Below, piece by piece: positions 21,316 to 22,866 of a DNA stretch of 26,101 nt. How positions within the stretch are numbered: position 1 is the first letter of the stretch; every line of letters starts with the position of its first letter. The notes beneath the pieces are model-generated. The model was not told the DNA's origin and made no database searches. It was given only the letters and a program-made list of their open reading frames with translations. The position numbers and the translations under genes were made by a program. The DNA comes from Rickettsiales bacterium (lineage in GTDB: Bacteria; Pseudomonadota; Alphaproteobacteria; Rickettsiales; UBA1997), in contig JBLHSZ010000001.1 in the NCBI GenBank assembly GCA_047627095.1, positions 1-26,101 on the forward strand, given 5' to 3'.

Positions 21316-22866
21316 TCACATTTTTGCGCCGACGTGGGTTTGTTCTAGAGCTTTTGCAAGAGAAGGTTTGGTCGGAACTACAGATGGAGTTCTTGGCATC
21401 AGCTTATCCATTAGATCTGGTCCAACAACAAGCCAAGATTTTCCATCTCTATTTGGCCTGACCAATAATAACTTTTCTGCTTCTTGTAAGGCAAAATTGT
21501 AAGCATCAACATGAGATTTAAAATCAACATTTTCTGGAAGACTTTCATTTAGGAATAGAGAAAATTTCATCCTTGATTGTTCTTTTGAAGTTCTATCTTG
21601 TGGATCGCAAGGCTGTGAATAAAGACAGTGAAAAACATTATTTACGATTTTATCATCAAGTCCAAATAATCTGGTCACCTCTGTTTTAATCAGATCTAAA
21701 TTTTTCTCCAATAGCACTTCTCCAATTTCTCGCCCTTTAGTCTGTGAATTAAGGTCAATTAAGAAATCCACGAATGGTTCACTTCTCGGATGGTTAAGAT
21801 AGTTAGTTGCCATTTCTAGCAATAAGCTATTTCCTTTTAAGTGTTTCATCAAACTGTCGATCAGATCAGTTGGAACTAAATCTAAGGTTAATTTAGCTTT
21901 TAAAATTGTGAATTTCTCATTTTCAACTATTTGGTAAAAATCATTTCTAAGAAATTTGATATCATCGGGATCATCACTGCATGAATTGAAAGACTGCATC
22001 TTTAATTTCTCTAAATAATCAGTGGCGCCTTTTTCTCCTGATGTAAAAACCAAATTAACATTATCCATGATTTTACCGTGTCCCGGTAAATCCGAATTGC
22101 AAAATAATGAACTTTGAAAAGGAGGGTAGAATGAATAAAATAAAGGAATATCAAGTTTGCCATCTTCATCAAATTTTGATCGAACACAAATAAAGGTTAG
22201 ATTAACTACCCCTCCTCGTAGCTTACATTGATTAGCAATATCATTGGCTAGAGTAAGATATTCTTGATCTGATTCAGGTGTCTTTTCAGGAAGGCATTTG
22301 AGAAGTTTGGCATTCTTTAGCAAATCATCACAATATTGTTTTTTAGTGTGACAGCGCACTCTTAAATTGGTCACCTGAATTCCGTGTTTTTCAGCTTCAG
22401 AGGTGTTGTGATTCACTATTGAATCTGCCAAATAGGATTTTCCGGAGTTTTTGTCACCGTGAATTAAGGCAAAATGTGATTTATTGTTGCCATCACTTAG
22501 ATTGATGCCAAAAGTATTGATTAGCCTTGATGATTGTAAATCTGTTTTCTTCGGCGCCGACAAATGTCTGGTGTAATCTTTTCCATCAAATTTTCTATTG
22601 TTTTTTGGTGGATCAGGAGGAAAGGTTGCTTGCAGTGCTTCATTAACCATTCCGGCATTTTTTATCGCATAATATGACGTTCCCAGAACTGTTCCCGCAA
22701 CACCAAAATAAGTAAATATGTCTTTTATTCTTCCATCTTTAAAGCCCTCATTTGAGGATCCTCCGCTTAGATTTCTGCGCAATGCTACTGGGTATTGTGA
22801 TGTTTTTTGTGCGAGTGTTGAAGAAATTATTCCCGCCTTATGGAGACTGGATGGGAGAGTGCGCAT
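21316..22866 (-). CDS. Orphan 516-aa protein: presequence-like N-terminus, one TM segment and a degenerate NB-ARC/STAND-like P-loop module; candidate secreted effector
   Basis: Intact 516-codon ORF filling the gap between xth and a lipoprotein gene. Walker A GDKNSGKS (aa 137-144) follows the strand FALIH; hydrophobic IFTYFGVAGTVLGTSYYAI at aa 50-68. The CDS is well supported; the functional call is inference. Confidence 0.8.
   Translation of the reverse strand: MRTLPSSLHKAGIISSTLAQKTSQYPVALRRNLSGGSSNEGFKDGRIKDIFTYFGVAGTVLGTSYYAIKNAGMVNEALQATFPPDPPKNNRKFDGKDYTRHLSAPKKTDLQSSRLINTFGINLSDGNNKSHFALIHGDKNSGKSYLADSIVNHNTSEAEKHGIQVTNLRVRCHTKKQYCDDLLKNAKLLKCLPEKTPESDQEYLTLANDIANQCKLRGGVVNLTFICVRSKFDEDGKLDIPLFYSFYPPFQSSLFCNSDLPGHGKIMDNVNLVFTSGEKGATDYLEKLKMQSFNSCSDDPDDIKFLRNDFYQIVENEKFTILKAKLTLDLVPTDLIDSLMKHLKGNSLLLEMATNYLNHPRSEPFVDFLIDLNSQTKGREIGEVLLEKNLDLIKTEVTRLFGLDDKIVNNVFHCLYSQPCDPQDRTSKEQSRMKFSLFLNESLPENVDFKSHVDAYNFALQEAEKLLLVRPNRDGKSWLVVGPDLMDKLMPRTPSVVPTKPSLAKALEQTHVGAKM

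Follow-up and report, generated by a model that had tools for sequence, protein, structure and literature searches.

The locus considered here raises the question of whether a bacterial ORF that begins like a eukaryotic mitochondrial protein encodes an effector addressed to an organelle of the host, as an earlier note on this DNA had proposed. The ORF, P0001 (21316..22866, minus strand; 516 aa, ATG start), encodes an orphan protein and lies in a window of 26,101 nucleotides, which is the whole stretch analysed, from an uncultured ice and marine relative of Rickettsia. Three very divergent homologues were found, all in sister species of one Rickettsiaceae genus and in the same or a rearranged slot: P0002 (genome G002), P0004 (G006) and P0005 (G005). 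The four proteins align over the leader, linker, helix and P-loop, and have a common layout of leader, Gly linker, aromatic/Gly helix, degenerate STAND-like body and basic C-terminal tail.

The segment to which attention had been drawn, 22663-22866 on the minus strand, corresponds exactly to codons 1-68 of P0001, and the N-terminus described there is indeed part of a genuine 516-aa ORF, which is unbroken and unchanged in orientation in contigs from several ice metagenomes. Among the RNA-seq runs listed, none contains the gene. The note had named a true start downstream of aa 34 as a reason to drop the proposal; M1 is supported by an in-frame stop 9 codons upstream, by the conservation of the helix and by the N-termini of the homologues, which likewise begin with M-R/K followed by an equivalent leader. 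The only alternative in-frame starts are TTG-L29 and ATG-M73, and the latter is disfavoured because it would remove a helix conserved across all homologues. The common layout of the four proteins also supports M1 as the start, as well as selection on the composition of the leader. No Shine-Dalgarno sequence precedes P0001, which is uninformative since merely 6% of the genome's genes have one. Codons 1-68 represent the true N-terminus of a protein from a family that evolves very fast and is confined to one genus, in an uncultured member of the Rickettsiaceae.

The leader, aa 1-34 (22765..22866, minus strand), is basic, acid-free and Ser/Thr-rich and ends in R-N-L-S; its composition is similar in P0002, P0004 and P0005. 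The residue counts reported earlier were reproduced, with five Arg/Lys (R2, K10, K21, R30 and R31), nine Ser/Thr (26% of the leader) and no Asp/Glu, for a net charge of +5, the first acidic residue being E40 and the motif R31-N32-L33-S34 being followed by GGSS. The N-terminus also proved to have no Sec-type hydrophobic core. A Sec signal was ruled out, as aa 1-34 contain no hydrophobic run of at least 7 residues and no h-region. A Tat signal was rejected as well, because RR is absent from P0004 and P0005 and, where present (P0001 and P0002), is separated from the helix by 18-40 residues, acidic ones among them.

Compared with the other N-termini of the genome, the leader is unusual in its composition. 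Among 764 confident ORFs, 57 (7.5%) are free of Asp and Glu over aa 1-34, 19 combine this with at least five basic residues, and two, P0001 and an FtsY-like protein, also have at least nine Ser/Thr, these filters having been picked after the sequence was seen. The R+A+L+S content of P0001 (0.52) lies at the 99.2th percentile of the genome's N-termini, and that of P0004 at a mere 54th. Amphipathicity is a hallmark of mitochondrial presequences, and that of the P0001 leader is ordinary for this genome, its maximal hydrophobic moment falling at the 70th percentile for 11-mers and the 42nd for 18-mers. The corresponding values are the 58th and 17th percentiles for P0005, the 80th and 96th for P0004, and at least the 99.7th for both lengths in P0002. 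The ordinary values of P0001 and P0005 weaken the case for a presequence.

The four leaders nevertheless share several properties of presequences, in a comparison of four proteins that represent 3 independent lineages and for which several criteria were picked after the sequences had been seen. The net charge over the first 45 aa ranges from +4 to +9 (+6 to +9, with 0-1 acidic residues, in P0002, P0004 and P0005), and the first acidic residue is at positions 40, 47, 49 and 21. Arg makes up 13 of the 22 basic residues of the family leaders, versus a share of 0.25 in the genome's N-termini (binomial p=8e-4). An R-x-[FYL]-[SA] motif, present in 5.5% of the genome's N-termini, occurs in all four proteins (R31 in P0001, R11 in P0002, R12 in P0004 and R26 in P0005), at positions that do not align. 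The P0001 leader thus has the positive charge with near-zero acid over 15-50 aa and the enrichment in Arg, Ala, Leu and Ser, with Arg over Lys, by which presequences are recognised, and the MPP/Icp55-type motif, R-x-[FYL] followed by [SA], is found in every member. This composition is retained in proteins otherwise diverged past BLAST detection, against a genomic background of 12% Asp+Glu and a K:R ratio of about 2.4:1; in the four leaders, composition persists while sequence turns over. About 5% of E. coli proteins are reported to carry mTP-like N-termini, and many random peptides to be able to target mitochondria (cited in PMC9832562); as such N-termini are frequent in bacteria, any one case is weak evidence.

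Downstream of the leader, a Gly-rich polar linker (aa 35-49; 22720..22764, minus strand) is delimited by the family alignment, and its Gly/His-rich counterpart shows 100% conservation in the P0002/P0004 pair. It is followed by an aromatic/Gly-rich, weakly hydrophobic helix (aa 50-68; 22663..22719, minus strand), which is conserved and aligns with a similar helix in all homologues (dN/dS 0.21 in the P0002/P0004 pair). This helix had been called a transmembrane segment, and it is the top 19-residue hydrophobic stretch within the first 200 aa of P0001, but it is a weak one: its Kyte-Doolittle mean is 1.18 (0.9-1.4 across the four proteins) and the crude additive Hessa sums are +3.9 kcal/mol for P0001 and +3.9, +5.0, +2.4 and +8.1 kcal/mol for the whole set. 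[quoted passage not shown] 2018, PMC6110835), and on these crude sums the helix is at or beyond their least hydrophobic edge. In P0005 the helix contains Lys and Asp and is separated from the leader by about 90 additional helical residues; given these charges and the low hydrophobicity, it may not span a membrane at all. The further proposal of a stop-transfer anchor is in keeping with the order of leader, motif, linker and helix in all four proteins, and is weakened by the polarity of the helix and by the Lys and Asp of P0005. An ESM Atlas search with aa 1-95 of P0001 alone returned merely a weak glycine-zipper neighbour (Rick_17kDa_Anti; TM 0.30), which was unusable.

The body of the protein, about aa 110-480 (21427..22539, minus strand), resembles a degenerate STAND/NB-ARC-like P-loop module, as judged from sub-threshold Pfam matches and ESM Atlas neighbours, and has no sensor repeats. 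The Pfam matches, to aa 125-250, are NPHP3_N (the best, 18.8 bits against a cut-off of 24.8), iSTAND (17.1 against 24) and ATPase_2, all sub-threshold and obtained with P0001 alone among the four members; P0002 matched no Pfam family, and P0001 reached the gathering threshold of no STAND family in Pfam. A Walker A motif, GDKNSGKS, is present at aa 137-144 (22435..22458, minus strand). It is intact in P0001 alone, the other three of the four members having G-K-L, and the alignment contains no acidic Walker B after a hydrophobic strand in any of the four. No LRR, TPR or WD40 sensor was detected in P0001. The ESM Atlas model (pTM 0.53) has NB-ARC neighbours with TM scores of 0.52-0.58 over about 350 residues; AlphaFold2 models had a pLDDT of 32, whether computed from the single sequence or from the 4-row alignment, and were unusable, and a PDB profile search gave nothing but the P-loop of UvrA (E=0.92). 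Bacterial conflict systems often contain STAND NTPases that carry N-terminal effector modules. P0001 shares with STAND NTPases (NB-ARC, NACHT, iSTAND) a Walker A P-loop and, as far as modelled, a putative alpha/beta core with helical and winged-helix-like parts behind it, but differs from them in staying below all Pfam thresholds and in having neither a Walker B acid nor a sensor. It cannot be filed as a member of that class, and the degenerate P-loop scaffold of the family is probably inactive.

The basic C-terminal tail (aa 487-516; 21319..21408, minus strand) has a net charge of +3 by charge count, the last 30 aa of the four proteins having +3, +2, +4 and +4. Such a tail is not distinctive, since 25% of the proteins encoded in the genome carry +3 or more in their last 30 aa. 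In the P0002/P0004 pair its dN/dS is 1.27, indicating neutral evolution with the charge kept. The last residues of P0005 are CVVS, a CaaX-like motif that follows basic residues; such an ending, found in none of the 764 ORFs of G000, is meaningful solely in the eukaryotic cytosol.

The earlier statement that no known family could be recognised was borne out by homology and profile searches. P0001 retrieved only itself in a word-indexed search of 5.8 billion proteins, in an exhaustive phmmer search over 1.84 billion representatives and among 40 related genomes, and a profile search with the four-member alignment returned P0001 alone. A family HMM gave only P-loop noise (E of 2e-4 or worse) over 400 Rickettsiales genomes, and NCBIfam contained no match. 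Within the family, P0002 and P0005 match with E=1e-18, and P0001 and P0005 with E=1e-3 from the P-loop to the RCHT block. The gene occupies a 1.7-kb cassette (21290..22976) between the conserved xth and lipoprotein genes that shares no nucleotide similarity with the sister species. In the comparison with G002 and G005, homology ends within the 3' ends of these two genes; the flanking proteins are 80-87% identical, whereas inside the cassette neither DNA comparison nor BLASTP detects any similarity. In G002 and G005 the homologous gene in the slot is in the opposite orientation, and the cassette has been replaced and inverted between species. No inverted repeats that would explain the inversion were found at its flanks. 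An AT-rich palindrome (repeat I5; 22908..22945), which might serve as terminator or operator, lies between P0001 and the lipoprotein gene, and an IS3 remnant adjoins the G006 copy. The P0002/P0004 pair has a dN/dS of 0.33 overall and 0.68 in the leader, and its indels preserve the reading frame. The surroundings of the cassette are housekeeping genes, and no PADLOC model of a defence system was matched. An NLR-associated amyloid motif paired with the neighbour was ruled out, as the adjacent lipoprotein contains no matching motif. The evolutionary pattern of the cassette is typical of host-interaction genes.

A genome with no secretion system or host association had been expected to speak against an effector. 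The genome encodes an rvh-type T4SS, with VirD4 (465 bits), two VirB4, VirB10 and three to four VirB6-like ORFs of 1050-1437 aa, and the organism is a reduced-genome member of the Rickettsiaceae. The proposal of the note thus withstood its own checks on start codon, secretion system and host association. In the ice and marine metagenomes that were sampled, algae are likely hosts.

We tentatively prefer, as an unproven reading, that P0001 represents a candidate family of rvh T4SS effectors whose leader is of the organelle-import type, and that mitochondria are the most plausible single destination. P0001 would be exported into the eukaryotic host cell by the rvh T4SS through its basic C-terminal tail, and the Arg-enriched, acid-free, hydroxylated leader would act in the host cytosol as an organelle-import signal, most readily a mitochondrial presequence entering via TOM/TIM23 and possibly cleaved after the R-x-[FYL] motif. 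The helix would aid membrane association rather than serve as a proven stop-transfer anchor, and the STAND-like body may be a non-hydrolysing scaffold or mimic. The conserved design of the family, the composition of the leader and the evolutionary pattern support this reading, as do the rvh T4SS in a reduced-genome Rickettsiaceae bacterium, the CVVS end of P0005 as a motif of the host cytosol, and the housekeeping surroundings with no PADLOC match. Against it count the non-aligned R-3 motifs, the undistinctive charge of the C-tail, the ordinary amphipathicity of two leaders and a helix too polar for a reliable membrane anchor; the CaaX box of P0005, moreover, points to endomembranes and not to mitochondria.

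The main rival, which we hold to be possible though doubtful, is that P0001 acts inside the bacterium in a degenerate STAND-like, conflict (anti-MGE), regulatory or membrane-associated role, the leader and helix serving as a disordered tether to the membrane in positive-inside orientation, or as a self-contained effector helix, and not as a host-targeting signal. The iSTAND, NPHP3_N and ATPase_2 matches belong to the bacterial conflict-type STAND class, hypervariable cassettes in fixed slots also typify defence loci, an IS element has left its remnant beside one copy, and basic residues before a hydrophobic helix agree with the positive-inside rule. With a single N-in span, however, the P-loop domain would end up on the periplasmic side, and the polarity of the helix is too high for insertion by Sec/YidC. 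The flanking housekeeping genes, the missing PADLOC match, sensor repeats and Walker B acid, and the loss of the Walker A Ser/Thr in three of four members fit poorly with this reading; the enrichment of Arg over Lys in a Lys-rich genome and the CaaX-like end would also be left unexplained. It is unlikely, in our estimate, that P0001 is secreted and its leader leads elsewhere, to the plastid, the nucleolus or anionic endomembranes, the last through a polybasic stretch combined with the semi-hydrophobic helix or prenylation. The Ser/Thr content of the leader is like that of plastid transit peptides and algae are likely hosts, the CVVS of P0005 with its preceding basic residues is a classic endomembrane anchor, and the amphipathicity of P0001 and P0005 is ordinary. 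Yet the Arg enrichment, the lack of acid, the R+A+L+S content and the R-x-[FYL]-[SA] motif suit presequences better than NLS or polybasic signals, and the complex plastids of diatoms also require an ER signal peptide, of which P0001 has none. Rickettsia effectors with transmembrane helices reach the ER and SrfB reaches mitochondria with no predicted MTS (PMC11258249), so that a destination is hard to read from sequence.

Two further readings appear less probable still. In a special case of the preferred explanation, which is very unlikely, a bipartite presequence and stop-transfer segment would arrest in TIM23 and leave the STAND-like domain in the IMS, anchored in the inner membrane. The leader, cleavage-like motif, short linker and Pro-free hydrophobic helix follow one another in this order in all four proteins, but the crude ΔGapp values, the charges inside the P0005 helix and its extra helical residues speak against arrest. 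Cytochrome b2, Mia40 and Tim50 are examples of such bipartite sorting to the inner membrane; P0001 resembles these signals in its basic leader, R-3-type motif, short linker and Pro-free helix, and differs in the low, non-conserved hydrophobicity of the helix across the family, in its bacterial origin and in that its import is a candidate from sequence. We likewise see little probability that the leader has no targeting function and resembles a presequence by coincidence, its composition being a side effect of rapid evolution in a disordered N-terminus. N-termini that look like an mTP have a high base rate in bacteria (PMC9832562), the dN/dS of the leader is near neutral and the independent lineages are just three; drift in this genome should, however, quickly bring in acidic residues and Lys, and four Arg-enriched leaders of 34-48 aa carry 0-1 acidic residues, with indels in P0002/P0004 that preserve the frame.

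The preferred reading, a T4SS effector with an import-type leader, has a precedent in Ats-1 of Anaplasma phagocytophilum, which, like Ehrlichia Etf-1, is a T4SS effector imported into host mitochondria. Ats-1 has a cleaved N-terminal presequence, requires its first 17 residues for targeting and is cut near an Arg (PMC2824752). P0001 shares with Ats-1 and with Ehrlichia Etf-1 the order Rickettsiales, a VirB/D4-type T4SS, orphan status and a basic presequence-like leader, and with Ats-1 recognition through the C-terminus, which is putative in P0001. There is no sequence similarity to Ats-1, whose import has been shown experimentally, whereas that of P0001 is a sequence-based candidate; in the matrix Ats-1 is soluble or loosely associated, and it has neither the hydrophobic helix nor the P-loop body of P0001; and Ats-1 and Etf-1 come from the Anaplasmataceae, P0001 from an environmental genus of the Rickettsiaceae. 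Semi-hydrophobic transmembrane segments in secreted effectors also have a precedent (PMC6110835; review PMC12981334): as in those T3SS and T4SS effectors, the segment lies under the bacterial SRP/Sec threshold in an intracellular bacterium bearing a T4SS, but in the P0001 family it is less hydrophobic still (crude +2.4 to +8.1 versus mostly -3 to +2).

A bolder version, to which we give little credence, is that a Rickettsiaceae bacterium living in symbiosis with polar protists injects a scaffold resembling NLR/Apaf-1, inactive and devoid of sensors, that takes the host's presequence pathway to the mitochondrial inner membrane or IMS and mimics or poisons a STAND-type platform of host cell death or immunity. 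An arms race with the host would explain the hypervariable, invertible swaps of the cassette at one fixed slot.

Should the leader have no part in import, the gene would still illustrate clearly how a reduced genome can carry a hypervariable orphan cassette. If it does drive import, this would be the first candidate family of mitochondria-directed effectors from environmental, protist-associated Rickettsiaceae and the first such family to bring an NLR-like scaffold into the organelle. A targeting signal would then be maintainable by composition alone while the whole protein turns over between sister species, which would be of use in effector discovery in uncultured symbionts and in understanding how presequences arise on bacterial proteins.

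The segment 22663-22866 corresponds to codons 1-68 of a 516-aa ORF with an ATG start (21316-22866, minus strand), the product of which, P0001, had no detectable relatives in two large protein libraries or in 40 related genomes. Homologues were uncovered through synteny. In the closest species, G002, where the flanking proteins share 69-87% identity with their counterparts in the window, a 539-aa ORF, P0002, about as large as P0001 but on the opposite strand, occupies the slot between the lipoprotein gene and xth. The same slot in the sister species G005 encodes a 594-aa protein, P0005, with 26% identity to P0002 (E=1e-18). 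A fourth member, P0004 from G006, is 81% identical to P0002 and has a rearranged context: its neighbourhood (L014:3196-3790 and L014:555-1163) lies outside the xth/lipoprotein slot, with fragmented IS3-type transposase frames upstream and ankyrin-repeat and ClC-like channel genes downstream. P0001 gave no significant BLASTP match to P0002 and matched P0005 with E=1e-3 from the P-loop to an 'RCHT' block.

Nucleotide similarity between species ends within xth and within the lipoprotein gene, in the 3' end of each, and the 1.7-kb cassette between them (21290-22976) is wholly different from its sister-species counterparts (L010:1293-2963 and L015:709-2493), with no nucleotide similarity. In G002 and G005 the homologous gene is downstream of xth; in G000, the assembly of the window, it is downstream of the lipoprotein gene and on the opposite strand; no flanking inverted repeats that could account for a cassette inversion were found. 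The family was not found in two further genomes that are 97-98% complete (G001 and G003), where pyrD comes after the GltD-like gene, and a family HMM detected no member in 400 Rickettsiales genomes. The P0001 gene is intact, unchanged in orientation and invariant in codons 1-68 in contigs of several independent ice-metagenome runs; no RNA run was among the listed runs carrying it. Between the stop codon of the lipoprotein gene and the start of P0001 there is an AT-rich palindrome (22908-22945) whose 10-bp arms match perfectly, and one ice-metagenome contig has an A>G change beside it, at 22948.

Upstream of the P0001 ATG the open frame adds just nine codons (525 versus 516), and the only other in-frame canonical starts are a TTG at L29 and an ATG at M73, the latter of which would remove a helix that all homologues conserve. 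The ATG lacks an upstream Shine-Dalgarno sequence, which is uninformative because an SD-like 4-mer occurs upstream of only 44 of 763 G000 genes (about 6%), so that ribosome-binding sites cannot be used to judge translation starts in this genome.

The four-protein alignment begins with M-[RK] and a basic, hydroxylated leader, followed by a Gly-rich linker, an aromatic/Gly-rich helix, a short Pro-containing spacer, a P-loop module, helical and winged-helix-like parts and a short basic tail; in P0005, leader and linker are separated by about 90 additional helical residues. The earlier note had read the P0001 N-terminus as a mitochondrial presequence, and its residue counts were all correct on recount: aa 1-34 contain 5 Arg/Lys and 9 Ser/Thr but no Asp/Glu, acidic residues begin with E40, and R31-N32-L33-S34 is followed by GGSS. 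Within the first 200 residues, no 19-mer is more hydrophobic than aa 50-68. The absence of a Sec-type hydrophobic core was likewise confirmed. The first acidic residue of the four members is at position 40, 47, 49 or 21, and the net charge over 45 N-terminal residues is +4 to +9. Arg makes up 13/22 of the basic leader residues versus 0.25 in genome N-termini (p=8e-4, three independent lineages). An R-x-[FYL]-[SA] motif, found in only 5.5% of genome N-termini, is present in each of the four, though at positions that do not align. The complete set of leader features listed in the earlier note was shared by 2 of 764 G000 ORFs, P0001 and an FtsY-like protein, and the R+A+L+S content of the P0001 leader is at the 99.2th percentile. 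Against these figures stands helical amphipathicity, which is high in P0002 and P0004 only and ordinary in P0001 and P0005. Base rates also bear on the leader: work cited in PMC9832562 reports a predisposition to mitochondrial targeting for about 5% of E. coli proteins, and targeting capacity as common among random peptides.

The P0002/P0004 pair gave an overall dN/dS of 0.33, with the leader at 0.68, the invariant, Gly/His-rich linker at 0, the helix at 0.21, the body at 0.13-0.27 and the C-tail at 1.27; leader and tail drift in sequence while keeping their charge. The helix, which the earlier note had taken for a stop-transfer anchor, is therefore conserved and functional, but probably not a robust membrane span: crude additive Hessa sums of the best 19-mer are +3.9 kcal/mol for P0001 and +5.0, +2.4 and +8.1 kcal/mol for the other members, and the P0005 segment contains Lys and Asp. 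A segment at or below 0 occurs in 18% of this genome's proteins. Stop-transfer is the weakest part of the proposed model. In the body, the Pfam matches to STAND-type P-loop families (aa 125-250) are all sub-threshold, and the structural neighbours of the ESM Atlas model are NB-ARC proteins (TM 0.52-0.58). Walker A is intact in P0001 only (G-K-L in the other members), a Walker B acid is absent from the four-member alignment and no repeat sensor follows. The description that suits the body best is a degenerate, putatively non-hydrolysing STAND-like scaffold, not certifiable as a STAND family member.

The G000 assembly (1.08 Mb, 138 contigs, 68% complete, about 35% GC; same-genus genomes 1.3-1.7 Mb) encodes an rvh-type T4SS, as the earlier note had suggested looking for, with VirD4, two VirB4, three to four VirB6-like ORFs (1050-1437 aa) and VirB10. 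The main VirD4 is on contig C94; a second, weaker VirD4/TraG-family match (174 bits) at a contig end (G000:C11:12703-13860) may belong to a conjugative element. Relatives of the genes neighbouring P0001 are in MAGs labelled Rickettsiales or Rickettsiaceae, and the rest of the window consists of housekeeping genes (ribD, icd, recJ, carB, pstB, lpdA, mscS, secD, yajC, purD, phoU, xth and genes for an EamA transporter, MerR, a hybrid histidine kinase, a small lipoprotein and a PRK06567-type GltD-like protein). The presence of ribD (1452-2543) and purD (13993-15282) indicates that riboflavin and purine biosynthesis genes are kept in this Rickettsiaceae lineage. The half-size CarB (6391-7974, minus strand, 527 aa) comprises one pre-ATP-grasp/ATP-grasp unit and the MGS-like domain of the carbamoyl-phosphate synthase large subunit. 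The GltD-like gene (23368-26100, minus strand) continues past the window end. Open frames of its relatives are 1106-1184 aa long and the profile is matched from model position 214 onwards, so that the TTG at 26070 is not the true start codon. No TLC ATP/ADP translocase (PF03219) matched in the 68%-complete G000, nor in the control genomes, so that its absence cannot be inferred.

A host-directed protein is the reading that fits the data best: only a subclade of one genus has the family, its divergence at a fixed slot is extremely rapid, leader and tail are conserved in composition only, a T4SS is present, and P0001 matched no defence-system model and has housekeeping flanks. Action inside the bacterium is somewhat unlikely. 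A further argument for host direction is the C-terminus of P0005 (L015:709-2493), R-I-K-S-C-V-V-S, a CaaX-like prenylation box with basic residues ahead of it; CaaX motifs are restricted to eukaryotes, and none of the 764 G000 ORFs has such an end. Together with the ordinary amphipathicity, this end also leaves room for effectors with another host destination, which we consider unlikely. Effectors of Rickettsia, too, arrive at mitochondria or the ER with no readable signal (PMC11258249).

Among the readings of the leader as a candidate signal, mitochondrial import is the best single one; a leader without function is very improbable. P0001 would then be a candidate effector with a leader of organelle-import type, most likely destined for mitochondria, a proposal that we make tentatively and at less than even probability, and which includes the exact stop-transfer model, itself highly doubtful. 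Ats-1 is a precedent for mitochondrial import of a bacterial effector (PMC2824752), a likeness for which the P0001 family is a candidate only. Bacterial effectors that carry a presequence are a known concept. The P0001 family is new, and a presequence-type leader joined to a semi-hydrophobic helix and an inactive STAND-like body would, if true, be a novel variation on that concept.
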